Positions 23,089 through 52,912 of a stretch of DNA of 57,973 nt are shown one piece after another; within the stretch, counting starts at the first letter, position 1, and every line of letters starts with the position of its first letter. The notes beneath the pieces are model-generated. The model was not told the origin of the DNA and did not search any database. It saw nothing but the letters and a program-made list of their open reading frames with translations. The stretch spans positions 1 through 57,973 of the forward strand of contig CALWEY010000088.1 in assembly GCA_944377435.1 (NCBI GenBank), written 5' to 3'. The DNA comes from an uncultured Clostridia bacterium (GTDB lineage: Bacteria; Bacillota; Clostridia; Christensenellales; UBA1242). The position numbers and the translations under genes are program-made.

Positions 23089-23150
23089 ATAAACGCATTA
23101 ACCACTACCATTTTTTAGACAAGGCCATATAAAAACCGACAAATTATGAC

Positions 23151-23177
23151 ATATTTTGAAATTTTGTTTCATACATT
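23151..23177 (+). promoter_or_regulatory. Sigma-E-type (mother-cell) promoter candidate for spoIIID
   Basis: ATATT (23151-23155), a 14-nt spacer, then CATACATT (23170-23177). This resembles the B. subtilis sigma-E consensus (ATAtt ... CATACAnT), and spoIIID is sigma-E-dependent in Bacillus. Confidence 0.45.
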
Positions 23178-23200
23178 GTTTTTGTTAGGAGATTGAAATT

Positions 23201-23449
23201 GTGGCTAAAAATGATAGAGTTATTGATTATGCAAATTACATAATTGAAAACAATGCAACAATAAGAAAAACGGCGGTTTTTTTTGGATATAGCAAAAGTA
23301 CCGTGCATAACGATATTCAAAAAAAATTAAAAAAAATAAATGGCGACTTATATTTTAAAGTAAAAATCATTTTAAAAAATAACTTTTTAGAAAAACATTT
23401 AAGAGGTGGCGAGTCTACAAGACAAAAATATTTAAAATTAAATAAATAA
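23201..23449 (+). CDS. spoIIID: Sporulation transcriptional regulator SpoIIID
   Basis: ATIRKTAVFFGYSKSTVHNDI and HLRGGESTRQKY match B. subtilis SpoIIID (..FGVSKSTVHKDL.. / ..HLRGGEATK..). The GTG start follows AGGAGA. Confidence 0.9.
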   Translation: MAKNDRVIDYANYIIENNATIRKTAVFFGYSKSTVHNDIQKKLKKINGDLYFKVKIILKNNFLEKHLRGGESTRQKYLKLNK

Positions 23450-23475
23450 AATTATTTTTAATTATTAAAAATATT

Positions 23476-23512
23476 TCATATTTTAATTTATTAAAATATG
23501 ATTTTATTTTTT
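23476..23512 (+). terminator. All-A/T hairpin terminator candidate after spoIIID
   Basis: tcatattttaa / ttaaaatatga forms an 11-bp stem with a 4-nt loop, followed by ttttatttttt. Predicted stability is low. Confidence 0.4.
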
Positions 23513-23534
23513 AATTATTTTTTTAATAATTTTA

Positions 23535-23547
23535 TTTCTCCTTTTTT
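23535..23547. repeat. Left arm of a 13-bp perfect inverted repeat (tttctcctttttt), an anti-SD-like sequence
   Basis: Its reverse complement, aaaaaaggagaaa, recurs at 23685-23697, which is the ribosome-binding site of the giant gene. Confidence 0.7.
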
Positions 23548-23578
23548 AATATTTTTTATGTCGAAAATTGCTAAAAAA

Positions 23579-23597
23579 TTTATTATTATATAATAAA
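23579..23597. repeat. 19-bp direct repeat, copy 1 (tttattattatataataaa), ending 4 nt upstream of the -35 box
   Basis: An identical 19-mer lies at 23644-23662. Confidence 0.7.
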
Positions 23598-23601
23598 TTA
23601 T

Positions 23602-23630
23602 TTGACACAAGTTTTAGATAATAATATAAT
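23602..23630 (+). promoter_or_regulatory. Perfect consensus sigma-A promoter of the giant-gene operon
   Basis: TTGACA (23602-23607), exactly 17 nt, then TATAAT (23625-23630). Confidence 0.65.
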
Positions 23631-23643
23631 AATCATGAATTCG

Positions 23644-23662
23644 TTTATTATTATATAATAAA
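23644..23662. repeat. 19-bp direct repeat, copy 2, at about +8 to +26 of the predicted transcript
   Basis: Identical to 23579-23597, 65 bp start to start. Confidence 0.7.
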
Positions 23663-23684
23663 AACATAACAATTGAAGACAATA

Positions 23685-23697
23685 AAAAAAGGAGAAA
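23685..23697. repeat. Right arm of the 13-bp inverted repeat, containing the GGAGA Shine-Dalgarno of the giant gene
   Basis: aaaaaaggagaaa is the exact reverse complement of 23535-23547. Confidence 0.7.
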
Positions 23698-23701
23698 AAG
23701 G

Positions 23702-26700
23702 ATGAAAAGATTTAAAAAATTAGTAATGTCGATGCTTTTTGTTCTTGTTGCACTAACAGGTGTTGTTTTTTCAGCATGCAATGATAATAACGATAAAATG
23801 ACAATTACTTTAAGTTCAACAAATATTCAAATTTTTTTAGGAGAAAACAACAACACTGCTTTGCTCACTGCAACTGTTGAAAATGCAACAGATTATAGTG
23901 TTACCGTTCTTTACGATTCTGCTGACATAAAAGTTACAACAAACTATTTAGGTGATGGTGTTACCGAAATAACTGTTCTTGCATACAGACAATGTACAAA
24001 TGTTGATGTAACTGTTAAAGGTGCAAAAAAATCAGCAAACTTTACCGTGTCTGCAACTCTTCCTATTTCTTCAATTGTTCCAAAAGAAAACAATTATCAT
24101 ATGGCTTATGATAAAACAAATGGTGGCGAGTTTGTTTTAAATGAATCTCTATTTAGTATTTTACCACAAGGCACAAATCAAACTCAGTTAAAATATGAAC
24201 TTACAAATGCAATCGAAGGTGTTTCGATTGTCAATAATAAATTAGTGATTGATTCAAACCTTAGCACTGTTCCTAATTCGATAAGTGTTGAGGTTATTTC
24301 TGCTTATAAGGACAACATAAAAACTACTATTAAAATTGATGTAATTCAGGTTATAGATGCTCAAAGTGTTATTATTTGTGATGAATCTGGAAACGAACTT
24401 GGAGAAGGTGAAACTGAATTTAATATTTCAAGAACCAATCCTGACACTGCAATTCTTTCTTTAATTGTTCGTGTTCCATTTAGTGTTTCTCAAGAGCCAA
24501 TTGTTGTAACACCAAAATTTACATACCAAGACAAAGGATTGCTACAACAAAATGATGTAATAATTTCAAAAAATGACATGTTGGGCTGTTATGAATATTT
24601 GTTTACATTTACTTTAGATGACAAAAACTCAACAGCAGGTACAGACTTTTTATATTTTGAACTTTCATATGCTGATTACCCTGATATTAAATCTAGTACT
24701 GCTGACAAAGAATATGGCAAATTAAAAATTACAACTTTTGATGAAATTTCGGATATTTCATTGAAAACAGAGGAAGGCTATATAAATTTAGAATCGCCAA
24801 TCAATTTGTACACAAATTATTATTCTCAAAACAAAATAGAAGGTTATTCAATTAAATTTGAAGCAATTCCTACAACAGCAACTTCAAACAAATTGTCATT
24901 AAATGTAAACCTGGCTGATGAAAATTTAAAATATTTATCCGTTAAAAATTCAATGGGCAGTGAAATTGTTTTTGTAAATGGAAAATATCTATTTGAAAGT
25001 GGAGAAGAATTTTATTTTATTGCAAAAGATGGATTTAATGATAATGCCGGAATACAAGTTACTGTTAAGAGTGAAGAAAATCCTCTTATTGAAAAAAATA
25101 TAAATTTTGTATTTAAAAAGGGTATAAGTGAGTTCGGGTTTGTATATGATGGTGCAAGCATTCAAAATTCAAGAACTTACTACATAAACAATGATAGTTT
25201 AGATCAATTTTCAAGTACAGTTGTAAGCTTTGCTGTAAATCCTAGAATAGACAGTTTAAATCTTGAAAGTGCTAAAATAAACGGAAACAATATTGTGTTA
25301 AAATATCCAACATTTACAATCAGTGCAAATGGTGATATGTTTGAACTTTTAGAGCAAGATTGGGGAAATGGCGAACTTGCATATTTGATTGAAAATGGAA
25401 TGGTTGGCAACTCTTATAGATATGATTTAAAAATTAAATCTATTGATGGCAAAACAGGTGAAGGACTGATAACAGTTAAGTTTGAATCTGGTCAAGAAAT
25501 TTCTTGCAAGGTTATTGTAATTGAAGAACTAAATGATGTAAAAGTTGGCATTGATTCAACATTTAATACTTCTTCTGCTGTTGGAAATATAAATTTTGAT
25601 AACGATAGTATAAATTATGTTGCTGTAAAATTGGGACAATCTTTGCCTCTTGTATACAATGCAAACACTACATATACATCTGTTTCATATGGATTTTACG
25701 ATGTAGAAGACGATGACTTTAATATTGATGAAGATGGACTTATTCCTCCAACGAGTGCAGATGTGTATTCGTCGAACTCAAATATTATTAGTGCAAACTA
25801 TTTAAGGGCAATGAGTTATATATCTCCAATAAAAGTTGGCAGAGTTTGGGTAAAGGCTTCGTTTACAGGCAAGGAAATTAAGCTTAATAAAAATGGACAA
25901 GAATATAATTATGTTGATAAAACAATCGATAAATATTTTCTTGTTGAAATATATGTTCCAATTACTTCATTTAGTGCAACCAACAAAACCATAGAGTTGT
26001 ATGCATACGATGAAGTGGGTGAATTTAATAAAGATTTGTCAACAAAAACAATTAGTATTTTGTTTAATAACGGACAAACAACTCCAACATATAGTGATGT
26101 TTATTGGGATTTCTGGGGAGATATTAAACTTGAACAAAATAAAGTTTATGAATTTAAAGCCACAAATTCAGATGTTGTTTATTTTACAGTTGAAAATGTG
26201 GGAGGTGGTAAATTTAAATTTACAGCTCTTACAAGAAATGCTGATAATGAAGACTCTGCTTTTATCCCTACAACTTTAAATATATCTACAAAAGATTTGG
26301 GACTTGATAAAAACACAATAGATTATTCAATAAATGTTGTAATTAAAGAACCAGTCTTAGTTGATAACATAATTGCATCTAATGTTGCGGACAATGGTAT
26401 ATATCTTATTACAAAAAATCTTGAAGGTATTGTAAATGGAGATACAACTTTTAAAATATTAACAAAAGTTGGACCTGATAACGCATTAAATAAAGATGTA
26501 GCGTTTAGATTTATTCCAAATGTTGGAACCGCAAGTAATGTTATAAATATCACTGACGATGGACTTGTAAGTGTTGTTGGTGAACATGGTGGAAGTGGAA
26601 CAATTAGAATATTGCCAAAGGACGGAATTTTTGTTGATACAAATGGCAATGAATATTACAGAGATGATATTGTTTATTGCGATATTCCTGTAACTATTGG

Positions 26701-29700
26701 TGACGGAACATCAAGAGAAACATCAATAAGAATAAACAGTTTAAATGAAATTGTAGATGGCACATTCCACTATACATTATTAAACAGTGTAGATTATCCA
26801 CAAGTTTGGGAAAATAAGCCAGACACATTTAATGGTGGACTATATGGCAAAATTGATGGAAGTAATTTTGTTGCAACAATAAACTTAAATGGTGAAAGTT
26901 TGTTCGAAACGCTTGGAAGTTTTGCAATTCTTGAAGATTTAATTGTTTGCGGGCAAGTTCAAGGACAAGCAATGCTTGCAAATACAAATAATGGTACAAT
27001 AAAAAATGTTACCGTTGATTTATATCAGCAAAATGGCAAATATATTGCGTCAAAAGTTGAAACTGACCAGGCGAGTGCTGGTGGTTTAGTAAATATAAAT
27101 TATGGGCGAATTGAAAGCAGTACATTCGCTGGTTCTATTGTTGCACCTAGCGGTGTTGTTGGTGGAGTTTGTGCAATTAACTATGGTACAATAACTAATT
27201 CAAATGTACTTATTTATAATATGGAAACAGACTCGCAAATGAATTTTGTTGGGCAAACAATTGGCGGTCTTGTTGGAGAGATGGCACAAAACTCTCGCCT
27301 TGAAAAATCTTATATATATAATTTTAGTACAAATGCAAACTTTGATACTAAAGTAATGGGAGCGTTAGTTGGAATAATTTCATCAAACAACATAACAATA
27401 GACCAATGTTTCGCCGAAATTGGACAAACATCAAATTTCTACACAACAAAAAATAGTAATGTAAGTAAAAATGATGAAAATTTAATAAAAAATAGCTATA
27501 TTATCAGCAAATTTAATCAAAATATTGATGGTCAGGAAAGTTTACAAATTCAATTTAGTTATTTCATGACTCAAAACAATGGTAAATTCATTTTTGGAAA
27601 TACTAATAATACAAGTGATACATTCTTAAATGTTTCTATGGGAAGTTCTCAAATATGGAATAAAGTTGCAACAACAAACTATGGTTTCCCATATTTAACA
27701 AAAGTTGTTCCATTAAAAGCTTTAACAGGTGAAGATTTACAAAATATACAAATTCAAAATACCAGATTGTCACTAGCCGAAAATGAAAATGTTGCTGTAA
27801 TGTATTTATACAAAACTAACGGATATGTTTTAACAGACTATGAAAAACAAGTCCTAAATATGGTAAATACAATAAGTTTAAGTGAACTATTTGGCATTGA
27901 TAAAATAGATGGACTTTTAGTTTCTTCTAATGATTTAAATGTTATAAACAGTTCGACAAATGAACTTCAAGTAAAAAATTTAGGAATGGTAGAGTTGACA
28001 CTTCAATCTAAATATGATTTAAGTGTAGCACCAAAAACTATTGATATTTATGTTATATATGCCACAAATAATTTTACATTAAGTTATAAAGGTCAAAATC
28101 TTTTAAGTGATGCAACAATATCAATTAAAAATGGTGTAAGCGATAGTTTGCAATCTTCATTATCATCAACAATTGTTCTTACAAATAGAGAAATTCCACT
28201 TATGCAAAACAATTTTGAAGTGGTTTTTGAAACAGAAAATGAACAATCTAAATTTGTTGTTGGCAAAAATATAGGAACTCATACAATCGTTTCAAAATTC
28301 GAACAAGAAAATGGCGATATTTTAGATAGTGTAAGTTTTGATGTTTATCTAAAATTGTTAGATACAATTAAGGATACAGAAAATAAAGACAAAATTGAAG
28401 AAATAATAAAACAGAGTACATTAAGAAAGTTAACAATACAAAGAACATATGGAGCATTGTCTTTAAGTTCAACAATTAGCAGTGCAACTATTTCAGCAAG
28501 TGATGAATTGGATATAAACTTAACTGCAACATTTGATTCACAGAGCACAAACCAAACTGTAAATGTTGAAATTTATGACAGTGAAGGCAATGACATTTCT
28601 ACTTTAAATGTATTTGAAGATATAATTTTAACAAAAATAAGCGAAACTCAAAACAATAGTATTGATACTGTTAATTATATTGCTACAATAAAAATAAACA
28701 AATCATTAAATTCATCTTTAATAGATTTAAATGGTTATACAATTAGATTTATATCAGACGAATATATTTTTGCAGATGTAAAAATTTATATTCTTGCACA
28801 AGAAATATTAAGAGTTGATGTAAATAATTATGCACAAAAAGAAAGTAATTCAAGTGGTTCAATGTACAATTATTATCCAAATAATGTTCTTTCTCCTGGC
28901 ACTAGTGGACTACTTGATATAATGATTTATCCTTCTTACGCAAATTACACACATGTAAATGTTACAGCACAACCTGTAAACAATCAAAGTTTATCTCTTA
29001 TTGCAATGAAGAAAAATGATAATGCAACATATGATATTGATCTTGCAACAAATTTTGAATTTATTGAAAATGGTGTAAAAATATATGCAAAAGAAAGCAC
29101 AAGCGAAGTTGGAAGATATTATGTTAGAGTTGTAGTTCCTTCTACTGTAAATATAAATACTTTTTATAATATATATATTGACATATATAATGGAGATGAA
29201 AAAGTTTACACAGAAGTATATGCACTTTTAATTGTACCACAAGAAAAAGCAGGAATTACTGTTGAAGGTAAAGACAAAATCTTTGCAGTTAAAGGTGATA
29301 CTATTATAGCTGATGTTGTTTATGAACAAACGCAACAAATAGAAAGTATTGTTGCATATGACATGAATACTACAACTGTAAACAATAATGTTACAATAAT
29401 AAACAATCAAGATTTTACTAGTTATGCTACAAAATACTTTAAGGGAACATTAAGTATAACTCTTGGAGAAAATTGTGGTAATATAGATATTCAAATAACA
29501 ACTTCAAGATATGTAAATGGTGTAAAAGAAGAAGTATATTCAATCCTTAAAGTTTATGTTCTAGATTTTGAATTAGATTTTGAAAATACTCATTTAAACA
29601 ATGAGACGGGTAGCGATGTTATTTATGGAGATAAATATTTCTACAATTCACTAGAATTTAAAATTGCAGGCAAATATGTTAGTGGAGCGAATGGAATAAT

Positions 29701-32700
29701 AACATCAAGCGAAAGAGCTTACAATACATTCATAGAAAATAATTATTACTTAAACAACGCAACGGGATATGAAGTAAACTATGATACACAAAATAAAGAA
29801 ACATTATTAGAAAACTTATATTATGTAAACAACAATGTTTACACACCAGTAATTGTAAAAAATGCCGATGGCACATACACTACAGTATCAAGTGATATAA
29901 TTGCTGACTTTGCCATTGAAGAACAAACAGTTAATGGGGAAATTCAAAAAGTTATCAAATTCTTAGGTAAAAATATTGGCACTCAAAGAATGCTTTTGGA
30001 AATTAAAGCAAAAATGCCAGACGGAAGCATAAGAACTTATCAATATTTCTTTGATATTACTATTGCAAATTATGTAACTGAAGAACAACCGGAAGAAATA
30101 TCAAACGCAGAAGAATTTTTAAATGCGTTTACAGGTGATGTAGAGCAAGATTACATACTTACAAATGATATAATTTTATACGATTTTTCACCAATACAAG
30201 ACACATCAAAAGTAAGCAGTTTAGACGGAAATGGACATCAAATTATTCTCAGAAGTTTTAGTGACAGTGTTTTAAATCAAAGCACCGTTAGTTTATCTTT
30301 GTTCCAAAATGTAACTGCTAACACAACAATTAAAAATTTAAGATTAAATATTTATCATATTGATGCAATTACCATTGATGCAAATATAACAAATCAAGTT
30401 AATATCGCACCAATAGCAATAAACAATGCAGGTATCATTACAAATTCAGAAGTTGTAAGTTATAGATATTTAGCAAATCAAATAACTCCACAACTAAGCG
30501 GAATAAACATAAAAGCTAACAGCACTTTAAATGTTTCGGCTCAAACATCTGGTTTTGTTTTGTACAACTCGGGAATTATAACAAATAGTAGAGTTGGTGG
30601 CGAAAGTATAAATGTTTATAATGTTAGTGACAAGGGTTCGGTTACATATGAAACTGTATACCTAGATCCATTTGTTATCTCTTCATTTGGTGAGATAAGT
30701 GGTTTTGTTCATACTAACACAGGAAGAATTTCAAGCAGTTATGTATCAAATTTAAGAGAAATTAACAATTCAAATATAGATTACACAACAATAACAAGTG
30801 GTTTTGCCATAGAGAACTCTGGCAGAATAAGTATGAGTTATGCAAAAGGTGTAAAAGACAATATTCAAGATGTTCATGCAACAAAATACGGTATAGAAAC
30901 ATCGGGAATAAGTGCCGGATTTGTGTATGCTAACTCTGGAAACATAAGTGATAGTTACTCAAACATAACACTTACAAACCTTGGGGACAATCCAGGAAGA
31001 ACAAGTGCTGGTTTTGTTTACAACAACCAATCTAACGGTGTAATAAAAACATCTCTTTCACTTTCAAGAATAATCGGTGCAACAACAACACAAATGAACT
31101 TCTCAGGTGTTGATGATTGGGGTAATTGGCAAAACTTTGGAACAATTGAAAATTCTTACTACTATGATGAAGTTGCTCTTGAAGATTCAAGTATTTTAAT
31201 TGAAGAAGCATACGGAGAAAGTGCATCACTTGTTTCTTCTGTTACACTTGAAGAGTATTTCTATGGTTACAGTTTTGCAACAAATGAACAAAATGATGAT
31301 GGCATTTGGGTAATGACAACAACAGGTCCAGAACTAATTAGTGCCAATACAAAATCAGTTTCATTAAGATATTATAGCGTTGAAACTAATGATGAAAATA
31401 GACCAATATTTAATTATGCAACAAATTATGAGTATGGCTCTTTAAATAATCCTATCTTAATTAGAAACGCACAAGAATTTAGCAATGTATTTAGTGGATT
31501 AGGTGGAACCAGTGCATCAAAATTTGTAAATTTAGACAAAAAACAAGCATTTGGCAATTATAGACTTATAAATGATATAAATTTACAAGAACTAATATCT
31601 AGCGATGATGAACAAACATATAGATTAGCATCTTCAAGCCTTGCACTAACAGGAGTTTATAGAGAAGAAGGAAACGGCAAGGGTATTGGTAAATTTGACG
31701 GAAATGGATTTACAATTTCGGGATTTGCACTTTCTGATTCTTATGTAGAAAGCAGTGCAACTAACTTTGGTATGTTTGCAAGCATAGAGTCGGGCGCAAT
31801 ACTTATGAATGTAAATGTAACCATTGGAACTACGAATGCAGAAAATGAAGTTTTAGGTGTTGAAGCAAAAAATGTAAAATATGTTGGTGCTATCGCCGGA
31901 ACTGTTTATGATGCAAAAGTTGTAAATGTAAATTTAACATCTGCTTTTGAAAACACAAACACTGTCACAGTGAGAGGAAAAAATGTTGTCGGTGGGCTAA
32001 TTGGTAGAGTAATCGGAAATTCTTACATATTTAATTTATCTGCCTCAAATGTAAGTGTAACAGCAGCAAAATTCCCAGATTTCTATTATGGAAATGGTGC
32101 AAGTTATACTACATATAATCAATATTCAAGAATAAACGAAGCACAAAATAACAATATTTCATATGCAGGTGGAATAGTTGGTATTATTGATACATATGGC
32201 GACGACTCGATTACACAAGAAATGTTTGCAGATTCCATTGTTTCAACAAATGGAAATGCCGTTATGCTTAAAACCACTGGAACAAGTCAAATCACGGCAG
32301 GAACTGTCGGTGGTGTTATTGGATATGTTGGACCACTAACAATTATTCAAGATGCACTCTATGAATTGTCATTTGTGGACACACAAAACAGAACAATGCA
32401 AGGCTTATATTCTTATAATGGTTTTGCAGGTGGAGTTGTTGGATATAATAAAGGTTATTTAAGACAAGTTCGTTCTGAGCATGAAGAAAATTGGCAATTA
32501 AATATCATCGAAGATAATGTCGATGACTACTATAAAGGTAACTATGATGTTGATAGAGGCAACGAACAGTTATTTATTGGAAATGGATATAATCCTATTG
32601 CAATTGGTGGACTTGTTGGGCTTAATGTAAGTGGTAAAATAGAAAAATCTTATTCAAAAATAAATGTTTTAACTGATACAATTAATTCATTTGCAGGTGG

Positions 32701-35700
32701 TATTATTGGTATAAATGAAACGCCTGTAACTTCTCAAACTGATTATATTAAATTATCATTAAATGAGGTATATGCGTTTGGAGATGTAAAAGCAAGTGTT
32801 GCTGGCGGTGTTATTGGTCTTAACAAAGGTGGATTTGATTTTGACAAAGTTAATGCTGTAAACTATTGGGGAAATAGGCTTATTGACGAAACTTATACAA
32901 ATAAAACTTATGCGGTATCTTATAACGAGAATCAAAATAATACCTACAAAACATCTACTGCTTTGTATAAAGAAGATGTATTGTTTAATAATAGTCTTCC
33001 TATTGCACATTTTGAAAATGATGAATTCATGTCACGCATAACAAGTTTATCAAGAGTTACAGGTGTAGGCGATGACGGCGAATTATATGATGGTTTCTTT
33101 ACTGGAAACGGTTGGGAAAAACAATCGTGGGCAAGAGATGAAGATGAATTATTCCCTCATATCTTGTTTGGTTATATAACAAAAATAAGATACATAAGAA
33201 ATCAAGACGATTTAGATTTATTAAGAGTGGCAACAAATGATGATATATTTGTAATTGATCCAGATAATAGTCCAGAAAATCAAGATGGATATATTGGAAT
33301 AACAAAAAGAATTGCACCAATTACAAATTTCTCTGGCACACTTAGAAGTTTAGATAATTTAAACCCATCAGGATTTTTGTTTAAAACAAATCAAAATAGA
33401 GCATTGTTTAGTTCAACAAGCGAAGCAACTTTCTATAATTTTAACATAGTTTACGGACAAGGAGTTACATTTAACGGTTCACTAAGCAAAAATTCAATTT
33501 TGGTAGGAACTGCTAACAATACAACAATTAACAAAATAAAATTTGAAAATATTACCTTAAATATAAACACAAACACAAGTGTTGTAGCTGGAATTGTAAC
33601 AGCAGAAGCAAAAGGCACAACTGTATTTAGTGATATTGAAGTTTTAAATTGCAACTTAAATATTACTTCTACTTATAGTAATGATGAAACAATAAACGCA
33701 GGTATGTTGTTTGGTACAGGACTAATTACAACATCACAAACAAAAAGTGGTGGTATTTTCGATACATCTGTACAAAATTCACATATAAATATAGATGGTA
33801 CTTTCGAAGGTTCAACAAATAGACCTAACAGTAGTTCTATTGGTTTAGTTGGTGGAAGTTTAATAAATAATTCTGTCGAATTAACACAAATGACAATCGT
33901 GCTGAATGAGAAAATATCAGGTGAAATAAATTTTGAAACGGGCTTAATAAATGGCAATATTGGTTATGTGTTTGGTTATATAAATGGTGTTGCAATAAGT
34001 TCAGCTTTAAATAATGAATCACAAACCTTAAACAGCAAGATAGAACCAAGTATAATTATTACTGATGAAAAAGATTCAAGTGCTTTATATAATTGCAATA
34101 TTGGTGGGTTTGTTGGAAATGCAATCAACTCAAATATTAGTGATGTTGTTTTATATCCAGAAATAACAATTGATACAAAAGCAGACAATGTTAATGTTGG
34201 TGGACTTGTTGGAAATCTTAACAACAGTAACATCTTAAATTGTGAAATAAAAGCAACTAACGAACAAAGTGAAGAACAAATAATTAAAGAATCAACAAAT
34301 AAAATTAGTATTTTAAATATTGATTCTTCAGATGAAAATAATATAGGTTCTTTGATTGGTATAGCAAACACTGATGTGAAAAGTAAAATTGAAAATGTTA
34401 AATCATATGTTAATTTAATGCTTTCAGTATATAATGACAATAAACAATCTGCACTAACAATTAAAAATAATATTGGTGGACTAATTGGAAATGTAGAAAA
34501 TTACAATATTTCTAATGCAATTTATTATGCAAATATAAATTATCAAAGTAGAAATGCTTTAAACAACACAAATAGTTTAGAAGATAGCACAAAAATAGGT
34601 GGTGTTGTTGGTAATGCGGAAAATACAATATTTGCAAAAGTATACTCAACAGGCGATATATTTAATAATGCAAATATTGATAAAAACAATAAATTTGATT
34701 TAATAATAGGCGGAATTGTTGCGAACCTTAATGGTGGCGAAATTTTAAATTCTATTGCAACGGGCAATGTTTATCCATCTTATCAAGTAAAAGAAGAAAA
34801 TGGTAAAAATGTTGTTACAAAATCAGAGACTGATATTACAAACAAACTAACTTCATTTGTTTATGGTGGACTTGTTGGAACTGCAAATGGTGAAGTTACA
34901 CTTACTTCAAACATTTCAATCAACACATTGTTTAATAAATTAGATAAACAACTCGCTACAACTTCTTATATTGCAAACTCGCTTGTTGGAAATGGTAGTG
35001 TTACCGATAAAAATGAAACAAATGTTTCAACAAACAAATATGCTCATGTGTACACGCTTACAACTGATAATAGTGTCGGCGAAAATGTAATGCTTAATTC
35101 TATACTTGGCAGTATTAAAGATTTATTAAAAAATGAAGAATACAATGTATGGGATAAAAACTATTTTGGTGAAGAAAATTCTGGTACAAAAATTTTACCA
35201 TTTGAATATTCAAACGGAGCAAAAGATTGGATTACAGGTAAAGAATACTATTATCTTGGAACAGAAGATAATTGTTACACTTTCAAAATTCAAGAACTAG
35301 CTAATCAAATTGTCGTTAGCGATGGTGCACAAGTTGTTTTTGAAGATGAAAATATAAATAGTCCTATTAAAAGTATAGACAACAATAGTGTTGTTTCGGG
35401 TATCGTTGTCCTTGCAAACTATAATGGTGACGGTTTAGTCGAAGATAAGGTTATTTCGGGTTTTGTTAATGAAAATAAAGGAATAATTTACTCTTGCAAT
35501 GTTAGGGGAAGATTAAACGGAAATCAAAAAATAACAGGATCAATAACAACAAATCGTAGGGCAAGTGCTTTTGTTTATGTAAACGACGGACTTATTAAAG
35601 AATGTTATACAAGTGTTGATGTTGTTTCTTATTATCAAGAAGAAGCAAAAGAAGATAATTCTATTGTTGTTGCTGGTTTTGTAATTTCAAATGGTGGACT

Positions 35701-38700
35701 TATTTATAATTGTTATTCATCGGGTTCAATTCAAAATTATGATCCAAACATCACAAATGGAAATTACAACGGGAAAATGTATTTATTTGGACCAGGAAAG
35801 GTTTATGACAGTTTCTCAAACACAAGATTGGTGGATTTAGATATAAAAGATCAATTCGCTAAAAGGAAATTTGCTTTTGAACAAGAAAAATCTTATGATT
35901 GTTTTTATGACAAATATGCGTGTGAAGCTATGTTATCAGAAGAAACATTTGCAAAAGTCACAAAAAATATTTCATTAGGTTATGAACAACAAGAAAGCAT
36001 AGATATATCAAAACAATATACAGGCAACTTGAAAGTAGATAAAAATTACAACTTTGGTTATGGCTCTTTTGTTGATGGCGTATACACTAATATTGAATAT
36101 ATGAAACATTATACAGGTAATGGTTCACAAGAAAATCCTTATCAAATTCCAAATCTTGGCAAACTACAACAATTATCAAATAATTTGCAAGACAAAAAAA
36201 CATATTATGTTTTGGTAAATAATATAAATGCTGAGTACATAAGTGGAGATATCGCTTGGGAAAGCAAAGATATTTCAAATGTGAACTTCTCTGGATATGA
36301 TGGAATATCTGAGTTGCACTATATAAAAGATTTAATGATAACAAATGGTGGATTGTTTAATAATGTTGATAATTCAGAAATTTCGCTCTTAACATTGGAA
36401 AATATTAGTATAGATGTTTCTTTGCAAAACAAAACAGAAGTTTCTGTGGGCTTTTTAGCTAACACAGTTAGCAACAATTCTATTGTAAACAATATTGAAG
36501 TAAGAACAAACTTTGATTCGACTGATACTGTAACCGTGAATGTTGGAAATCAAGGTGAAAGTAAAACTCTTATTTTAGGTAATGTTGTAGGGTCATTAGA
36601 TAGTAATTCAACGCTTAGTAGTTGTAATTTAAGTTCGTTGTCATCAAATAGCAATGGCATAGAATATAGATTGAAACTATCGAACTATAATATAAATTAT
36701 ATTATTGGCGGAATGGTTGGAGTTTTAAATGGAGGAATTGTTACAAATTCTAGTTTAACAAAGCCAATTTATGTTGATTTTGCCAACGGTGTTAAAATTT
36801 CCGATAAAACTATTATATTTGGTGGAATTGTTGGTCTTCAAAATGCTGGAAGAATTGAAAATTCATATATAAACCAATCAATGCATCTATTTGATGGAGA
36901 ATTACATAATATTGGAAAACAATTAACCGAACAAGAAAAAATAAATAAACTTGCTGAATTATATAAAGATATTAAAAACTTAAAATTATATGCTGGTGGA
37001 ATTGTTGGTTCTTGTAGTGATGTAATCAATAACGACGCAACATATGATTCAAGTGAAAAAATAATAACAAGCAGTTATATTTTAAATAGTGTTGAAATTA
37101 TTGCAGGCAATAGTTTTGCATTCAGCGAAACCTATTTAGGCGGAATAAGTGGCTATGGTGGTAATATTTCAAACTCATATAGTAAAGCAAAATCTTTAAT
37201 TGGCCATGCTATTTATACAGTGACACCTTTTGATAAAGACGAAGCACAACGCAGTAACGGAACTAGCACAGGGGATAGTTTTGATAGTAGTGTATTAAAC
37301 ATCTATTCCGAAAATGGTAGTGGTTTTGATATTTACGAAAAAGCTATTTATAGAACTGTTGAACAAAAGGCACATGTGGCTGGAATTGCAAATAATTATA
37401 GTAGTTTGGATACGGTTATCAATTATTGTGATAACATTCAAGGTGGTATGAAATCAAGAAACTTGTATTCTTATTACAACATAGACCCTCTTCAGTTAAT
37501 ATTATATTATTCGCTTGCGTGTACATATTACGCTAGTTCTATTATATCTTTTGCTAATTATATGTGGCCAGCGGGGTTTGTATTTCTTGCAACGATGTAT
37601 GTATATTTGAATATTCCACAGGTTTCTGCATCACAATATTATTTTGCAGGAAATGGTTATGAATATTTTTCAAATAATTCTCAATCAAGCTATTTTGCAA
37701 ATCCATATTCACCAACACAAATGGCTTGGACAAATATTTTGCCTATTGCTGTAAATTTGTTTGATGCGTTTAAACTTCCTCTTGGATATGTAAAATATCA
37801 ACTCATTGGTGAAGGATTCGATGTTGTTAGAGATGGCGTTGGTAATTCATCAAATGGTATTTGGATGGATATCCAAAAATACACTCATAGTGGTAAGGAT
37901 TATTATTATACAGAAGATGAAAATCTTTACATTCATTCTTTATACTTTGATTCTATAGGAACATCAAATAATGGAACAAAAGAAAGAGTTTATTCATCAG
38001 GTGGTCAAGCACTTAAAGAGATTACGATCAACAATGCAACATATTATGGTGCTAATGACAACAGTAGTGTTAACGGACAAGGCAATGCGTTTAATAAATA
38101 TGGACTAGTATATAGTTTAGATAATATTACTTATGATAGTATAACTAAAAATCAAGATATTGACGAAAACACAATGAAAGAAATAGGTTGGGAACAATGT
38201 GCCGATGGTACATGGGTGCCTAGTGATTCTGTTGAAGTTAAAAAGACCGATCTTAGCGACATGATGAATAACCAAATTTCAATTCAAAACAACAAAGCTG
38301 TTATTAAAGTTGCAAACATTGAAGATTATAGAATGCTTGAAGTTTTAATAAATGATTTACCAGAAGAAAATCCTGAAAGACTTAATGAGTTATGGAATAA
38401 ATATACAACAAATTCTAATTATAATGAAAAATTAGAAGATTTATATCAAATTATAATTGCTAAAGAACCTTCTTACACAATAAAATTTGTGTCAAGTAAT
38501 GGCAGAGCAAATATCACATTAAATAATGTTTTCCCACTTGGAACAAAAACTCATCCATTTAACGGATATGTTGAAGGTGCAAATTTTGGTGAAAGCGGAT
38601 TCTATACTTTAAATAACATTATTGCTTCAACTAAGACAGACAATGATGCAAGTGGCTTGTTTGGTTATGTGAAATATTTAAATGTAAAGAATTTGAATAT

Positions 38701-41700
38701 TATTTATAGTAATAACAATCAAATAGTAACTCAAAATCCATTAAATATAGGTGGACTTGTCGGTAATGTTGTATCAAATAGCACTACATCTGTTGATGGC
38801 GAAGTACAGACATCAACAATAAGTGAAGAACCTAATATAATAATAAAAGATGTAAATGTGAACTACGTATTTAAAGATTTCACAGACATACATAACAAAG
38901 ATTCTGTTGATAGCACATCGTCAAATAACATTGGTTCACTAATAGGTTATGCTGAAAATGCAAATATCGAAATATCACAAGTTAATATTCTTGGCTGTGA
39001 TATTCAATTAAAAAACAAAAGTGATGATAATAAAAAGGAACAAGCCGTTGGTGGCATTGTTGGATTTATTCAATCGTCAATTATAAGCATAAGCGATGTT
39101 GATGAAACAATAAATATAAGATCAACCTCATCTAATAAAACAATAGGTGGAGTTATCGGAAAATCACAAAACACACAAATTCTATTAGAAAATACAGATA
39201 TTGATGGAAATATTATAAATGAAACTAATGTATTAGACGCGATAGTTGTTAGTGGTGGTTTGTTTGGTATTCTTGAACAAACAAACAACGAAAATTCTAT
39301 ATTGTTAGATACAATAAATATCAACTTAAAAGAAATTTCAGCAAAAGCATCAGTTCAAGGTGTAACTTCATATTCAGCGGGAATGATAGGATATCTTATT
39401 GGTAGCGATGATTATATTAGCCAAATTATAACAGAAGAAACATTTAAAAATATAAATGTTGGATATGCTGACTATCTTGGATATCAAGACAAAACATTTA
39501 TAATGTCAGGATTAAATGCAACAGAATATAGCAATAGTGCATATGCTGATGATTTTATTGGAAATAGAAATGATTTCCCTAAGACAATAAATAAAATACA
39601 AGACAATTCAAAAATAAATGTTTATGCTTCATGCTTGGCTGTAAGCAGACCAAACTACAATGATCTTCCAACTCATGATGAAAATAATAAAATAACTGAT
39701 GGCGGAATAAATTCAACAATTACTTATATGTCGGGTGGAGATGATGTTGCTGGTGCAAAAAATATAAAAGTGGAAACATTTGAATATGCAACAGAAATTG
39801 ATAGTGAAGAAAGTTATGCTTATATAAACGGTGAAAAGTATACGCTATACAATTACAAAAAAGACTATTACATTGTTATAACGGAAATTCAAACATTAAA
39901 AGCAGACAGCATAAAAATTGATGGAAGCAAAGTAAAATATGATATTTATAGCATTGAAGATAGAATTTATAGACTTCGTATAGTTGGAGAATGTTATGCG
40001 CAAGGTGATTACAACATTGTTGATAATTACTCATTAGAATTTGTACGAGCAAATAAATATACAGTTACAATAAATCCTTATGCAGACTATTTAACAAAGG
40101 TATATCCAATGAAAAATAGAACAACTGATTTTATGCCTACAATTATAGATGGTACAACATTCTTAATACAAAATGGTTATGAGAGTAGTGATAAGAATTT
40201 TGTAATCAAATATAAATCATGCTCAACAATGGAAGAAGGAGTAACATCTTACGATAGTTTTACTTTGGATTATATGGTTATAAACGATACAATAAATTTA
40301 AATTTAAGCGTAAGTGTTAGTGATACAGTAATCAATTCGGGAATTGCACAAACTAAAACTGTAACAACAGAATATACATCAATAAATATTGATACATCTA
40401 ACGGAATAAAATTATTGTTAAACAGAACAGAGTCATCATCAGATTCATCAATTTCAGCCAACGAAAGTGATGTTGATGAGGAAAATCCTGAAATAAGTGA
40501 TGCAGGTGGCGATTCTGCAACAAAAGTATTACCACCTATAACGCTTTTCACATATCAAAACATTTATACATCAGATAGCATCAACTGGGGAGAAAACACT
40601 GTTAATTATGATATTAACGGAAAAATTCAAAATATTTCAGATGTCGGTAAGAACAATTATACATATACATTTAATGTTGATTTAGAAAATTCTAAAAAAT
40701 TAAAAATTAGTGAAAACATTGTTTGGCAAGATGATGGCGAAGAAAAACCAAATATGTTTATTACAACAGGACCAACAATAAAAATTGATGGACAAGAAAC
40801 AAAAACTTACAAATCTTTAATTATTTCAACAAAATCTAATGACGAAGATGGTTGGTATAAAGATTATGTGTATTTAATAGACAAAGATTTGAATGTGGCT
40901 TATTTAGGATATATTACTTATTCAATTTCAGATGGTTTAGAAATAAATGCTCAAACAAGCAGAAATAAATTGTTCTTCCCATATGGAGACGACTTTACAG
41001 TTGAAAAATATGAAAATCATCTAAAATCATTAAATGATGTACAATTTAATGGTGCACAGTCTATAGACTTGTCAGACTTTGAATTCTCATTTAACACAAG
41101 TAAATCAACAGTTGATTACTTAGTTACAAAAGAAAGTGAAAATGTTTATAAAATTAAAGAAACATTGGTAAATACAACAATAGAAAACAATATAACAATT
41201 AAAAATATTACAATTAAATCTTTAAATAATATAAATGTTTCATTTAATCTTCAAACTAACGAAAAACAGGGAACACCAGAAATAATTTATAAAGACACTA
41301 TTTCAATAGATGTTATTGGAAGAGGCTTAACTGTTGTACAAAATGCTAATGTAAATGGAGAAACTATTACATCAGACAAGGGTTTTGTAATAGAGAATCG
41401 ACTTAATTCTGACACTTCGGCAAATGGATATTACTACTATGAATTTGATTATGAACAAAAAGTTGTAAATAGATATAAATTAAATGGAGAAAACCCAGAC
41501 TTTGAAAAAGGCGAATGTGATAGCTTTGACTTTAGTGGAAATCCTTTAAGTACAACTGTTTTAAATATAACAAAAGAATCGACGACTGCATTTAAGGTGG
41601 AATATAAAAACAGTACATCAACAAACGAAACAATGTTTAGACTAAAAGACGAAAATGATAACAATTTAACAAGCTTTATAACATTGGGTGGTGAATTTAG

Positions 41701-43178: not shown

Positions 43179-46100
43179 ATGGAGAGAAAAATGAAAAAAT
43201 TTTTAGTTATTATAAATATTTTTATATTGACACTTTGTGCCATAACTTTAACGGCGTGTGGTGAAAATTTTAGTAAATTTTCTCTCTCGTTTTCTAGCGC
43301 AAGCATTGATTTAACTTTAAACGAAGAAAAAGAATATGATATAAAAATTGAAAATTATTTTGAAACAGAAGTAAACTTTAATTTTGACTTTGATAAAAAT
43401 TTAGCACAAGTTGATGCCAACATAACAAATTTAGGCGATGGCACATATAGAGTAAAAATAAAAGGTTTGATGAGTGGAACAACAACACTTACAATAACTC
43501 TTTTGGAAGGAAATAAAAAATGTGTTATTCCTGTAAATGTATATGAACCTGTAACTGACTTTTCTTTAAAAGATAATTTAAGTTTGTATGTTGTTAGGGG
43601 ACAAAGTATAACATTTACTAGTGATATGTTTAACTTCTATCCTCAAACAACACTACAAAAAGAACTAGAATTTAGTGTTAATTCAATAAATTTAGAAAAT
43701 AATACATATTTTGCAGACTATGATTCACCTAATGTCGTTACGGTTACAGCAACAAGTGCATATAATAGCAGTTTAAACAGAAGTTTTGAACTTGTTGTTC
43801 TTGATGAAATTGATACGGAAGGAATTACACTTAGTTATAATGATGATACCGTTTTGCCAATAGATAAAGATGAAAATAGTTATATTGAAATAATTGCCAA
43901 CGATGATAGTGACTTTAAAAAGACTTACATAATGACATATGATGCAACAAAAAACTATGATTTTCAATTTATTTCAAAAGAAACAAACGAGTATTTTACC
44001 AGTTCAAAATGGGAATTAGAGAATAAATATAGTGTTGATATTGTAAACCAAAATGAAAAACTTGTTGAAGATACTCTTGTAATTAGAGTTTATGATGCAA
44101 ATTATAGACAATATTATAAAGATATAGAATATAAAATTAAATTTGTGTACATTCCACAATCTATAAAAATCAATGGACAAACCGTTGTTGATCAAGTAGA
44201 TTTATTTGATAATAATTTACAATCCACAGTTCAAAAAGCAAAAATTTCAATAAATCCAACAAACGCAACATATTCTAATGTAACTATTGAGTTTTATGTT
44301 GAAAATGCAGCAACTAGTGAACTAACAAGGTTAAGTTACACTCAGATAAAAGAATATTTGTGTGTAAAATACAAGGGAATTGAAATTAATGACAATCAAG
44401 TAATAACCGACCTTTCTGCTGAAATTGAATATTACGGAAGAAAAGTTTTGCCAACTGATTTATATGGAGAAAATATATATATTAGATTCGTATGTAATTC
44501 CGAATATTTAGAGACTCCAATTTATAATGAAATTCCTGTAATAATTAGAAAAAGTGCAACAGATTTTTATGTTAGTGAAGAATATATAAATTCAACAATA
44601 TATGTAAGTACAAAAGACGATGTTGTTACTTTTAATGGTTTTGTTGTTAAAGATGATGGTGCATATATTGGAAAAATTGTTGCCGTTGCTGATTATCTAA
44701 GTTCAGGTTATGTTGAAGTGTCACAAACACAAGATAATTTAGCATCGATTGACATAAAACCGTTAAAACAAGGTCAAGCTACCTATACTTTAATTTTGTC
44801 AAGCGGTATTTCTACAAGATTGACGATCGTTGTTAAAGAAGAATTTAGCATAAATGATTTTTGGCTTTATGTTTCTCCAAATAATACAGACAATGTGGCA
44901 GAAGTTAGTTACAAAAATATAAGAGAAAATTCTACACTAAGTTCGGTTGTTTTAAGGGGACTAAGTGAATTTGAAATTATAACAAACATAATGCCTAAAA
45001 ATATTGATAAAGATATGTACACTTTGTCATTTAGAAGCACAAATCCAGATGCGATTAGTGTGGAAAATAACAAAGTTAAAGCAAATAAAATTGACAATCA
45101 AACTTATAGAATTATCGTTGATTTAAGTTTGATGCAAGTTGACCAATTTAAAATTGTTGAAAATCCACAATTCCAACATAACAATCAATATTCGTTTGAT
45201 GTTAAGTGTTTTAAACCTATATCATCATTCAGTGTAGTTGGAGTAAATGCTGGAAAAAGCAATGAAACATATACAAGCAAAACGGAAGTTTATGTTGGCA
45301 ATATTGGTGAAGTTGATAAACTCATGTCCGAAGTAAACTTAAAACTTTTAATAGACAATAACGAACCGGAAGATGATGACGATAGAATAAAGGGCATTAA
45401 ATGGAGTTTTTCTACTACATATCTCGAAATAGAAAATGGAGTTTATGAACTTAGTGAATCAGGTTCTCAAATCGGATATTTTTATGCAGATGAAATGAGA
45501 TTTGTTTGCAGAAGTTCTAATTCTAGCGGATTTATTAAAATAACCGCAGAAATTATGGAATATGGTAAAGCAGTTTCAGCTTCCATACAAGTTGATATAA
45601 AATCATATGTACAAGTAAACAACATTTGGCTTAATAATTATGTTGAACAAATTTATTTAGACGCTGTTTACAATGAAATTACATTGTATCCATACATTGT
45701 TCCAAGCGATGCAACAAACAAAAATTATGTTGCATGGTTTGAAGCAAAAGATGGAACATCACCTGCAATTGTACAACTTGAATATGATTCTTCATATATC
45801 AAACTTTCATATTCAGGTCGAGGCGGTGGTCAAGGTACATTGCATATTGTTCCAAGTTCTAAATATAGTGGTGAATCATCTGGCGATGAAACACTTTACG
45901 AATCTTCATTAAATCTTGATGTTTATATTGGAGAAGGAACAATAGAAAACCCATTGCATATTAGGACATGGGAAGAATTTAAAAACATTGACCTAACAAA
46001 ACATTATGTAATAGACACAATAATTGATGCTCAGGGCGAAGAAATAACACCACTTGGAGAACTTACAGGTGGAATAAAAGGTTATGTAACAAATATAGTT

Positions 46101-49100
46101 AATAATCAGGTAACAAATGAAAATGTTGGCGGAATTGTAAATTTTGTTATAAAGAATCCAAATACATTAAGAAGTGTTAATTACTATGGTCTATTTACCA
46201 ATATTGCTGAGACAGGTTACTTAATGAATTTGACAATATCAGGTAAAATAGATGTAAGTGAAACAACATCAAACGATTCTTATGTTGGTTTAGTTTGTGG
46301 TATAAATAACGGACTTGTTAAAAATGTATCAGTTAGTTTACTTAAAAGCAATATTAGTTCTAACGGAACAAATAATTTATATGTTGGTGGTGTTTGTGGA
46401 GAGAATAATGGAAGCATAATTGCCGACATAATAGAAAAACAAGCTGGAGATTCAGTCGCAAATATTGACAACGAAAAAAGAATTGGAGAAAACACACTAT
46501 TTAATGATAATGAAACAACTAGTTCAGGAATTATAAATCCTAATTATCAAACTGTTAGACCAAATTCCACAATTATGGTTCAAATGTATGATATATTTAA
46601 TGTTTTTGTTAATAAAGCAAACAATGAAACAATATATTTTGGTGGAGTGGTTGGAAACAATAATGGACTTATAAGTTTTAGAAATAACAACGATTATATA
46701 AAATATAATTTGTATGGCACATCATCTGTTGTAAATATGCAAGTTAGTGGTGTAAGTAATAATTCATACATTGGAGGTGTGGCAGGTTATAACGACGGTG
46801 GGAACATTTTAAATCTTCTTGCAAAAGGCACTATCGATGCTAGCAACTTCTCGCATGTTGCAGGAATAATTGGTTCGTTAAATAAAGGAAAAATTTTAAA
46901 CAACACAACAAAAGTTTTTGTTAGAGGTAAAAACTATGTGGCTGGACTTGTTGGACTTGTTTCGCAAGATGCTGGTGAAAATGTAAACCTTTCAAATAAC
47001 ACTGTTGAAGCTATTGATGAAGGGAAAACAGGAATTGATGCTTCACTTATTATAAGTAACAAAGGTGATGATGGTAAAGATTGCGCACATCTATACTTTT
47101 TAGGTACAAATGCTGTTAAAGATGATGGAAAAAATATCTGTCAAACATATGTAAATAGAAACATAATTGCTGACGGCGAAAATGAAAATTTAACAAACTA
47201 TTATGGTGATGTAATAAAAATTTCTGCTGACGGAATAACAAAACACGAAACATTTAACAAAGCTTTAAATGTTGCTAATTTTAGTGAAATAATAGACACG
47301 GTAAAATATCCACAAAACACAATTATTTTGATGTATTATAAAGCTGTTGATGTAACAAATCAAAGTTTATTAAAAGATTTTAATACTCAAAAACTTCCAC
47401 AAGATTTAATATTGGAAGAATATAGAGATATTGAAATTAGTTTGTCTTCTAGTGCAAGCTCAGTTGTTTCAATATCTTCAATGGGCGAACTCGTTTTAAA
47501 TTCAAAAGGAACTTGCGTATTAACATTGTCATCATCAAATAACTACAAAGATAAAGTAGAGATAAAGGTTATTGTTACAAACTATATTTCCGATCTTCAA
47601 ATGTACTTAACTTCAGATAGATTGGGAAGTGCTATTACATCTGTAAATGTACTAAATGTTAATAACAGAAACATTCTCAACTTGTATCCAAAGTTTGTTG
47701 GTCAAGTTACAACAATAAACGGATATAGAATTGATACAATAGAAAACTCAGAAGCACTCTTAGAAATTGAAGCAGATGACAGTTATGTATCTGTTAAACA
47801 GTCGGGAAGAACTGTTATGCTTCAAGGTAATGGAACAAATAATTCTGTAAATAATTTGCCAATAGATTTTTATGTGTACATTCCTGTTATAGTTAACGGA
47901 ATAGAAACACGATATTATTTAGTTAAAAATCAAGATAATAATATGTTTGTTGCAAATGCAAAAAATAACTCTAATTTGCAGTTAAACATGAATTACACAC
48001 AAGGAATTTATAGTATTGAATTAGATAAAACAAATATGGACATTGTACCTAGTGATGTCATAAATGTCAGAGTACAATACTTAACCGATGACGAAAACGA
48101 CAGACTAAATCTTGTTATGAAATATCTTGAAAATGGTGTATTTATTGAATATAGTCAAGAAAATATAAGTGCATTTAATGAGTATTTTAAAAATGTTAGT
48201 GTAAGTGAACCTAAATTTGAAAATGGTAAATATTATGTAGATTATTTGTTTGAATTGAACACTGAAAGCGATGTAAAATTAGGCAATTATGAATTTGTGT
48301 TTTCAAGTTCAATTTCAGGAGTGTCAAAAACATTAAAAGTAAGATATTCAAGTCAGCCAATGGATAGTGTAATTATTAAAAATTATACTTTTGCTGATAA
48401 CCAGGATATAGAACTTGGCACACTAGATGATGGAAGTATAATTTACAACACAAGTTATACAATGCAGGAAACAAATACAATTACAGCAGGTAAAACAAAT
48501 ATTTTAAGAATTGTGGTAAATCCATATTATGCCGATTATTCTTATATTGAAGTTACAAATGATAATTCTAATATAAACAATGGAAAGGTTGTGCTATTTG
48601 GTCTTTTAAAACAATATAACAATCAACCAAATCAAGCGGTTGTATCAACTAACGGATACACAACAGCAAAAGGTATAAGAGTTTATAAAAAAGATATACA
48701 AGGTGGAGATTTACAAATTCTTTATAGATTGCATACAAATGTAATTGAAGGCGATAGTGTAACACTTAATGTAAACTTCTATAATGAAAATGGTGATATT
48801 GTTTATAGTCAAGAGCAAAAAGTATTGACAATAGCAATTGATAAAACCATTGATATCAGTATTTCAGGAAAAGAAAACTCAACTGGTAAATATTACTTGG
48901 CAAGAGGAATGTCATATGCATTAGATGTTAAATCTGTTGGATATGATACTGATGAAATTTATATAACATCATCATCACCTTATATAACTGTTATGCGTGA
49001 TGGTTCATCATTCTACTTACAAGTTGCACAAGATATAAATTATATTTCTGGACAAGAAGGAGCAGATGTTCTTATAACATACTATGGTAAGCGTTTAGTA

Positions 49101-52789: not shown

Positions 52790-52801
52790 ATTCCTTAGGA
52801 A
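52790..52801. repeat. Left arm of a 12-bp inverted repeat (attccttaggaa) upstream of the rpoB promoter
   Basis: It is the reverse complement of ttcctaaggaat at 52901-52912. Confidence 0.6.
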
Positions 52802-52871: not shown

Positions 52872-52900
52872 TTGACAAAAATGTAGCAAGTGTTTATAAT
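52872..52900 (+). promoter_or_regulatory. Perfect consensus sigma-A promoter upstream of rpoB
   Basis: TTGACA (52872-52877), exactly 17 nt, then TATAAT (52895-52900). It predicts a leader of about 200 nt. Confidence 0.6.
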
Positions 52901-52912
52901 TTCCTAAGGAAT
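52901..52912. repeat. Right arm of the 12-bp inverted repeat, abutting the -10 box and covering the predicted transcription start
   Basis: ttcctaaggaat begins immediately after TATAAT. Confidence 0.6.

Follow-up and report, generated by a model that had tools for sequence, protein, structure and literature searches.

Twin A/T-only palindromes flanking the promoter of a giant surface-protein operon in an uncultured Clostridia bacterium as candidate paired operators

What controls an operon of about 29 kb that takes up about 2.5% of the genome carrying it? The question is raised by contig CALWEY010000088.1 of an uncultured Clostridia bacterium (assembly GCA_944377435.1), a stretch of 57,973 nucleotides, hereafter the window, that is one whole contig of a 1.15-Mb genome (28.7% G+C, 97 contigs, estimated completeness 100%, estimated contamination 6.5%). 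The operon holds two giant genes, and the promoter region 5′ of the first contains a 19-bp sequence twice, once on either side of the core promoter, with a 13-bp inverted repeat bracketing the whole. A sequence-only reading of this region had offered three explanations: the 19-mers are paired operators for a repressor, the promoter is an invertible segment bounded by the 13-bp inverted repeats, or the upstream 13-mer is an anti-Shine–Dalgarno sequence that masks the ribosome-binding site in transcripts reading through from the preceding gene, spoIIID. Our analysis finds the first of the three to be the best supported, through the palindromic form of the repeats, their conservation and the purifying selection acting on them; it has identified no binding protein, and for the downstream repeat an RNA element is a rival.

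Reading the sequence from 23100 to 23900 placed the 13-mer arms, the two 19-mers, the core promoter, the ribosome-binding site and the ATG at 23702 exactly where the sequence-only reading had put them. On the plus strand, from 5′ to 3′, the left arm of the inverted repeat (TTTCTCCTTTTTT, 23535–23547) lies inside a T-rich spacer and is followed by a perfect match to the consensus Spo0A box, TGTCGAA (23559–23565), about 37 bp 5′ of the −35 element. Next come the upstream copy of the 19-bp direct repeat (DR1, TTTATTATTATATAATAAA, 23579–23597), a σA-type core promoter that matches the consensus at 12 of 12 positions (TTGACA-17-TATAAT, 23602–23630) and the downstream copy (DR2, again TTTATTATTATATAATAAA, 23644–23662), the palindromic copies themselves being assigned to neither strand. 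A leader motif (TTGAAGACAATA, 23673–23684) separates DR2 from the Shine–Dalgarno (SD) region (AAAAAAGGAGAAA, 23685–23697), which is the reverse complement of TTTCTCCTTTTTT and forms the right arm of the inverted repeat. DR1 ends 4 bp before the −35 element and DR2 starts 13 bp past the −10 element. Transcription would be expected to start at about 23637–23638, and counted from this inferred start DR1 spans about −59 to −41, the position of an UP element, and DR2 about +7 to +25, so that both repeats would fall within the polymerase footprint or at its margin, on either side of the core promoter. A feature absent from the sequence-only reading is that both 19-mers are perfectly palindromic in an 8-3-8 layout, TTTATTAT-tat-ATAATAAA; at DR1 the symmetry reaches 10-3-10 (23577–23599).

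The 19-bp direct repeat is not a product of chance, since such repeats are nearly absent from block-shuffled genomes: direct repeats of at least 19 bp within 300 bp of each other occurred 0–1 times in 20 genomes shuffled in 50-bp blocks. The exact 19-mer is present only twice in the whole genome, as DR1 and DR2. A lone 8-3-8 palindrome is not rare (140 in the genome versus about 68 expected), and the evidence must therefore be sought in the fact that the palindrome is duplicated and in what relatives have at the same place.

We compared the upstream regions of 18 congeneric species, this genome included, anchored on the −35 element. All of them have spoIIID, its terminator, the T-rich spacer, a TTGACA-like −35 and a −10, with the −35 (TTGACA/T/G) and the −10 (TATAAT or TATACT in most) lying about 100 nt 5′ of the ATG in 18 of 18. 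A perfect A/T-only palindrome with arms of 8–11 bp and a 3-nt centre follows the −10 at a distance of 7–16 bp in 17 of these species, the sole exception (G003/L003) carrying a single T-to-C mismatch. The arms read TTTATTAT and ATAATAAA in 12 species (centre tat, ata, gta or gtg), ATATTATAAT and ATTATAATAT in four (centre att, ata or aat), TAATATTAT and ATAATATTA in one (centre ata) and ATAATATAT and ATATATTAT in one (centre ttt). In a gap-free alignment of 15 species, 99.2% of the cells of the downstream palindrome are paired, three of the eight pairs have changed on both sides, and none of 500 shuffles reaches the covariation score; sliding the register of the alignment lowers the pairing to 41–75%. 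A further species, recovered from metagenome contigs, reads ATTATTAT-tat-ATAATAAT, with the outermost pair changed compensatorily.

Judged from this comparison, DR2 is the local form of an ancestral, genus-wide element. DR1 is found only in the four closest species (L001–L004), where it is invariant at 19 of 19 positions and always 65 bp from DR2; it is absent from the other 14 and was added within the four-species clade to which this genome belongs. Conservation in relatives, on which the sequence-only reading had made its regulatory explanations depend, is thus found for the downstream palindrome across nearly the whole sample and for the two-copy arrangement in four species.

Sequence divergence among these four species points to purifying selection on the two repeats relative to their surroundings. 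The 143-bp block that runs from the TGTCGAA box up to the ATG has a pairwise identity of 87–93%; the corresponding values are 59–81% for the T-rich spacer just 5′ of the block and 50–73% at synonymous sites of the giant gene, taken as the third positions of codons from conserved four-fold families. Inside the block, variable positions number 1 of 38 in the repeats, 0 of 19 in the −35, the −10 and the 0A box, and 15 of 67 in the remainder (Fisher p = 0.009 for the repeats versus the remaining positions). One species is represented by six contigs, all identical in the core between the Spo0A box and the ATG, while their T-rich spacer, 3′ of the spoIIID terminator, carries a 23-bp indel (L060/L061 versus L062–L065). 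For the repeat, non-randomness, palindromic symmetry, conservation and purifying selection are thus shown. The leader motif is likewise invariant in the four closest species and recognisable in most others, where it usually reads TTGAnnACAATA; its AGACAA core resembles the RRACAR core of the SpoIIID consensus.

In the reading that we prefer, and to which we give about an even chance, a homodimeric DNA-binding protein, probably a helix-turn-helix (HTH) repressor, has the two identical 19-bp palindromes as its operators; protein binding, repression and the location of the transcription start are each what we infer from the arrangement of the sites. From the centre of one half-site to that of the other is 11 bp, or roughly one turn of the helix, a spacing typical of Cro/cI- or Xre-like HTH dimers. 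The DR2 site, ancestral to the genus and centred at about +16, would lie within the region that polymerase covers 3′ of the −10, and the DR1 site, centred at about −50, would lie where the α subunits of the polymerase contact an UP element. Occupancy of both, possibly cooperative over a centre-to-centre distance of 65 bp, would close a σA promoter that is otherwise of maximal strength and could provide tight on/off control of the 29-kb operon, while the conserved Spo0A box just 5′ may add a second input from the stationary-phase and sporulation regulator.

Several features favour a protein as the reader of these sites. Above all, DR1 is an identical and invariant second copy, yet it lies 5′ of the −35 and outside the transcript of this promoter. 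The arms consist of A and T only, whereas G-U and G-C pairs would have offered an easy, stabilising route to an RNA stem: no G-U or G-C pair occurs in the arms of any species, the one single C breaking a pair. These features bear directly on the main rival to operators, a weak RNA hairpin in the 5′ leader. According to that explanation, which we regard as possible but doubtful, the downstream palindrome acts as RNA, either as a short A/U stem-loop that guards the long mRNA from 5′-end-dependent decay or as a hairpin recognised by a protein, and DR1 is a secondary copy that acts as an UP element or has no RNA role. The covariation agrees with such a stem, whose complementarity is perfect in all species but one and whose pairs have changed on both sides at three of eight positions, but DNA dyad symmetry predicts the same covariation as RNA pairing. 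The placement of the stem is suggestive in five species, where it would start 7–9 nt past the −10, at about +1 to +3; in the clade studied here some 7 nt would separate it from the inferred 5′ end. Flanking GG/CC and a bulge lengthen the stem in four species, to −5.9 kcal/mol, but the hairpin of this genome is predicted to reach no more than −1.2 kcal/mol, the other arm-only hairpins have −2.6 to −3.7 kcal/mol, and the whole leader from the inferred start is essentially unstructured, folding no better than shuffles (−2 kcal/mol, z-score +0.4). The lineage does use A/U-rich hairpins as RNA signals, as the spoIIID terminator illustrates; the loop of that terminator varies from 4 to 6 nt, whereas the centre of the palindrome stays constant at 3 nt in the same sequences. 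An RNA role also leaves the invariant, identical copy 5′ of the −35 unexplained.

Compared with the 5′-stabilising stem-loops of Firmicute mRNAs, among them the ermC and aprE leaders, the element is alike in being a conserved, hairpin-capable sequence near the 5′ end of a long mRNA with covarying arms, and it differs in its far lower stability, its A/U-only arms, its distance from the inferred 5′ end and its second identical copy outside the transcript. A hairpin read by a NusG paralogue in LoaP-type antitermination was also considered and rejected, as the genome has a single NusG gene and no specialised, LoaP-type partner to read a leader hairpin. An Rfam search returned no RNA family matches.

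Several observations weigh against a pair of operators. We found neither a cognate DNA-binding protein nor an autoregulated neighbour. SpoIIID, encoded next door, is an unlikely binder of the palindrome: aligned to Bacillus subtilis SpoIIID (PDB 2L0K; E = 3e-15 over residues 5–79) it retains the SKSTVH.D and HLRGGE.T..KY stretches and, because its recognition residues match those of B. subtilis, it would be expected to prefer a G/C-containing site. No regulon is visible either, sites with at most two arm mismatches numbering 49 in the genome and 28–47 in shuffles; the proposal of the sequence-only reading that the 19-mer elsewhere in the genome would define a regulon led to no other exact copy and to near-matches at background. 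The perfection of the dyads is itself a difficulty, as perfect complementarity in 17 of 18 species combined with half-sites that differ by clade (TTTATTAT, TAATATTAT, ATATTATAAT, ATAATATAT) is the expected product of selection on base pairing, and natural operators are usually imperfect. The GG/CC flanks and bulged A that lengthen the possible RNA stem in four species count on the same side. Finally, 65 bp corresponds to 6.2 helical turns, which leaves the two sites not exactly in phase.

The TATAAT hexamer inside each 19-mer raises another explanation, that the repeats are extra −10 regions acting as tandem alternative promoters or in σ-dependent promoter-proximal pausing. A near-copy elsewhere in the genome lends it some substance: at C8:20631–20649 (G000) an 18/19 match to the repeat stands 1 nt 5′ of the ATG of an Smr-like gene on the minus strand, too close for an SD to fit between them, and the end of its TATAAT is 6 nt from the ATG, so that the mRNA of this gene looks leaderless with the repeat copy serving as its −10. 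Eight species whose palindrome has GTA or GTG at its centre, however, have no good −10 hexamer and retain the palindrome all the same; the available −35 partners are poor, and neither the perfect dyad symmetry nor the 19-bp identity would be accounted for. We give this explanation only a slim chance. The C8 site was also considered as a member of a regulon under the palindrome binder and set aside, given its resemblance to a leaderless −10 and its lack of conservation in the three closest relatives.

A second site, at C90:9943–9961 (G000, minus strand), is a 17/18 copy of the repeat core (TTATTATTATATATTAAA) located 8 nt past a TTGCAA-17-TATACT promoter, in the leader of a gene for a 1083-aa secreted protein. 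G001 retains it, but in an intergenic region that is conserved as a whole, and G003 does not; the count of such sites is within background, and as a second target of the palindrome binder the site is no more than suggestive. Known operator motifs compared by eye (Fur/PerR 7-1-7 boxes, MogR, ComK, CodY, ArgR and dif-type sites) do not fit the palindrome. Tandem duplication of the whole 65-bp unit was rejected as the origin of the two copies, the sequences that follow DR1 and DR2 being unalignable by eye beyond a TTGA..ACAA resemblance. A literature search with the 14-mer core gave irrelevant matches only.

The 13-bp inverted repeat fares differently in the same kind of test. The genome contains 95 inverted repeats of at least 13 bp with gaps of 30–300 bp, compared with 25–43 in block shuffles, and within the window matches with at most one mismatch show no excess over expectation, 11 of 100 shuffles reaching 3. 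Because such pairs are common in both the genome and the shuffles, this one is unremarkable. The 13-mer that forms the SD arm occurs seven times in the genome and is the generic A-rich SD of this organism. The genome-wide frequency check that the sequence-only reading had suggested thus separates its two repeats, the 19-mer standing clear of background and the 13-mer not. The inverted repeat is best regarded as a chance match, and it has no part in the model that we favour.

This assessment bears on the proposal that the 13-bp repeats are the ends of an invertible promoter, as in Clostridioides difficile cwpV. The repeat does bracket the promoter with 13 of 13 positions matching, and the genome encodes three serine recombinases with resolvase domains, two of them with open frames of 545 and 503 aa. 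All three are on other contigs (C5, C22 and C38) and no recombinase gene lies near the putative switch, tyrosine recombinases not having been searched for. About a third or more of such inverted repeats would be expected by chance in this genome, and one of the arms is nothing other than the generic SD. None of the 16 other species checked has the left arm, not even the three closest, in which the SD is kept; relatives read TTTCTTTTTTTT at its position, in the fast-evolving T-rich spacer. Among about 30 assembled loci (18 genomes and about a dozen metagenome contigs), none is flipped and the promoter always faces the gene, although assemblies report the majority form only. The locus resembles the cwpV/RecV switch in being a clostridial surface-protein gene with upstream inverted repeats; it differs in that the cwpV repeats are about 21 bp long, conserved and seen in both orientations, whereas here they are 13 bp long, confined to one genome and within chance, with one arm being the SD itself. 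Inversion at this site is scarcely credible.

The same left arm could instead sequester the ribosome-binding site in spoIIID read-through transcripts, and the pairing does form in silico: in the minimum-energy fold of a 281-nt read-through RNA, positions 23535–23547 pair with the SD (−48.8 kcal/mol, z-score −3.7). The mechanism requires read-through of a terminator that is conserved throughout the genus (−7.7 kcal/mol, with a U tail), and transcripts from the consensus promoter start 3′ of the anti-SD. Nor is the pairing conserved in any of the 16 other species checked: the longest upstream anti-SD match reaches 13 nt in this genome only and amounts to 0–12 nt elsewhere, in A/T runs without CTCC. 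Sequestration is hardly tenable on these grounds, and both explanations built on the 13-bp repeat are very unlikely.

One metagenome contig hints at what the direct repeats might do besides any role as operators. L071 (ENA ERZ24773297, BRZ_DS NODE_96789; 2106 bp, coverage 2.85) belongs to a sister species represented by L066, to which it aligns in two blocks of 99.6% and 100% identity that overlap by a 20-bp repeat. It lacks exactly 65 bp (L066 1398–1462), comprising one repeat together with the −35, the spacer and the −10. The copy that remains contains a TATAAT with a poor −35 (TTGCTA, 15-nt spacer), which is why an allele of this type would probably be weakly expressed. The direct repeats could accordingly be read as a deletable promoter cassette, in which slippage or recombination between hairpin-prone repeats of 19–20 bp removes 65 bp and yields low- or non-expressing variants, a one-way genetic off-switch that could coexist with an operator role. 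The near-identity of the flanks and the loss of precisely one repeat unit plus promoter speak for such an event. The smallest k-mer normally used by such assemblers exceeds 20 bp; as the 20-bp repeat is shorter than this, collapse of the assembly graph is unlikely and the junction should exist in the reads. L071 is, however, a single contig of low coverage that may derive from a chimeric read or an assembler error, and a deletion, being irreversible, is not the sort of mechanism that is normally selected. A second deletion allele did not come to light: a junction scan of JGI metagenome contigs gave 0 matches, and the other roughly 12 contigs of the clade that reach the promoter either keep it or end before DR2. 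We consider a cassette of this kind quite unlikely.

A combined form, in which the twin repeats double as an excision site and precise deletion of the promoter in gut populations produces stable low- or non-expressing lineages on top of protein-mediated repression, also strikes us as unlikely. If L071 is real, it shows that the promoter, because of the twin repeats, is liable to be lost precisely. Contigs L067, L068, L072–L074, L069, L083 and L084 end inside the intergenic region, some of them 7–12 nt past DR1; these ends probably reflect low coverage and low complexity, and structural heterogeneity would also fit.

The Spo0A box suggests a second regulatory input. The TGTCGAA sequence is present in 10 of the 18 species, in four of them reversed and next to the −35, and the genome encodes Spo0A (C8:24188–24967, with a Spo0A_C domain of 140.7 bits at C8:24209–24517). 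The heptamer is not enriched genome-wide (49 copies, where 7-mers of equal composition have a median of 58), and the argument for a Spo0A-regulated promoter therefore rests on recurrence at this promoter. As with the 0A boxes of B. subtilis abrB, spoIIG and spoIIA, a perfect box precedes a σA-type promoter in a genome that encodes Spo0A; unlike in those cases, there is a single box here and its position and orientation differ between clades.

The promoter lies between a sporulation gene and the two giant genes, all on the plus strand. Upstream are a YwmB-like gene, a gene for an M23 (SpoIIQ-like) peptidase, acpP and spoIIID (23201–23449; 82 aa; Pfam PF12116, E = 6e-28), the last directly 5′ of the giant operon in all congeners examined. 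spoIIID ends in an intrinsic terminator (23476–23513) with an 11-bp stem (UCAUAUUUUAA / UUAAAAUAUGA), a 4-nt loop and a U-rich tail, whose predicted energy has a z-score of −3.3. The stem CATATTTTAA/TTAAAATATG is kept across the 18 species while the loop varies in sequence and length, which makes this terminator a clean case of a functional hairpin that is nearly all A/U. Giant gene 1 (23702–43162) encodes 6486 aa with a lipoprotein-type signal peptide (MKRFKKLVMSMLFVLVALTGVVFSAC). Giant gene 2 (43179–52757; 3192 aa) starts 17 nt past its end, and for that reason the two are presumably co-transcribed. A Pfam search of both giant proteins gave zero family matches. Orthologues of giant gene 1 are present in 17 of 19 congeneric genomes and in none of the other genera of the family that were sampled, and a search of JGI metagenome contigs with the N-terminus of the giant protein found no relative.

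rpoB and then rpoC follow 3′ of giant gene 2. The rpoB promoter (TTGACA-17-TATAAT, 52872–52900) is likewise of perfect consensus, and it too has an 11-bp palindrome beside it in two copies, TTCCTtAGGAA and TTCCTaAGGAA (52790–52801 and 52901–52912), one upstream and one directly after the −10, a two-dyad layout parallel to that of the giant-operon promoter.

Operators flanking a strong promoter are a known kind of architecture; the unusual aspects here are the perfectly symmetric, A/T-only sites and the recently added second site. The arrangement is like that of Escherichia coli gal OE/OI, bound by GalR, of lac O1/O3 and of B. subtilis AraR sites, in which near-identical dyads stand astride the core promoter, one before the −35 and the other within the first stretch of transcribed sequence; here the layout is conserved, with the same spacing in four species. 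Unlike in those systems, the sites are A/T-only and perfectly symmetric, the half-site sequence shifts between clades while the symmetry is retained, and the upstream site is recent and clade-specific. The spacing of 65 bp, or 6.2 helical turns, is also shorter than the 113 bp of gal.

A functional likeness is offered by the giant staphylococcal surface proteins Ebh, SraP and SasG, which are reported to be repressed by MgrA, a winged-helix dimer under ArlRS (PMC6548404). Very large surface adhesin genes are kept off by a small DNA-binding dimer there, which makes expression conditional, and the same is proposed here, but the likeness is functional only: the organism and the motif are different, and no MarR/SarA-type regulator is linked to this locus.

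The removal of a false inverton call should be useful when inverted repeats are mined in A/T-rich genomes. In this lineage, whose members are uncultured Clostridia of the gut, about 2.5% of a genome of about 1.1 Mb goes into one operon, which a perfect-consensus promoter drives and which encodes two giant surface proteins of unknown fold. The control region of that operon is now defined at base resolution, with a Spo0A box, two conserved dyads and a conserved leader motif, and comparison within the genus indicates that a second candidate operator was added to an old promoter. This provides a handle for finding the regulator and for asking when the giant proteins are displayed.

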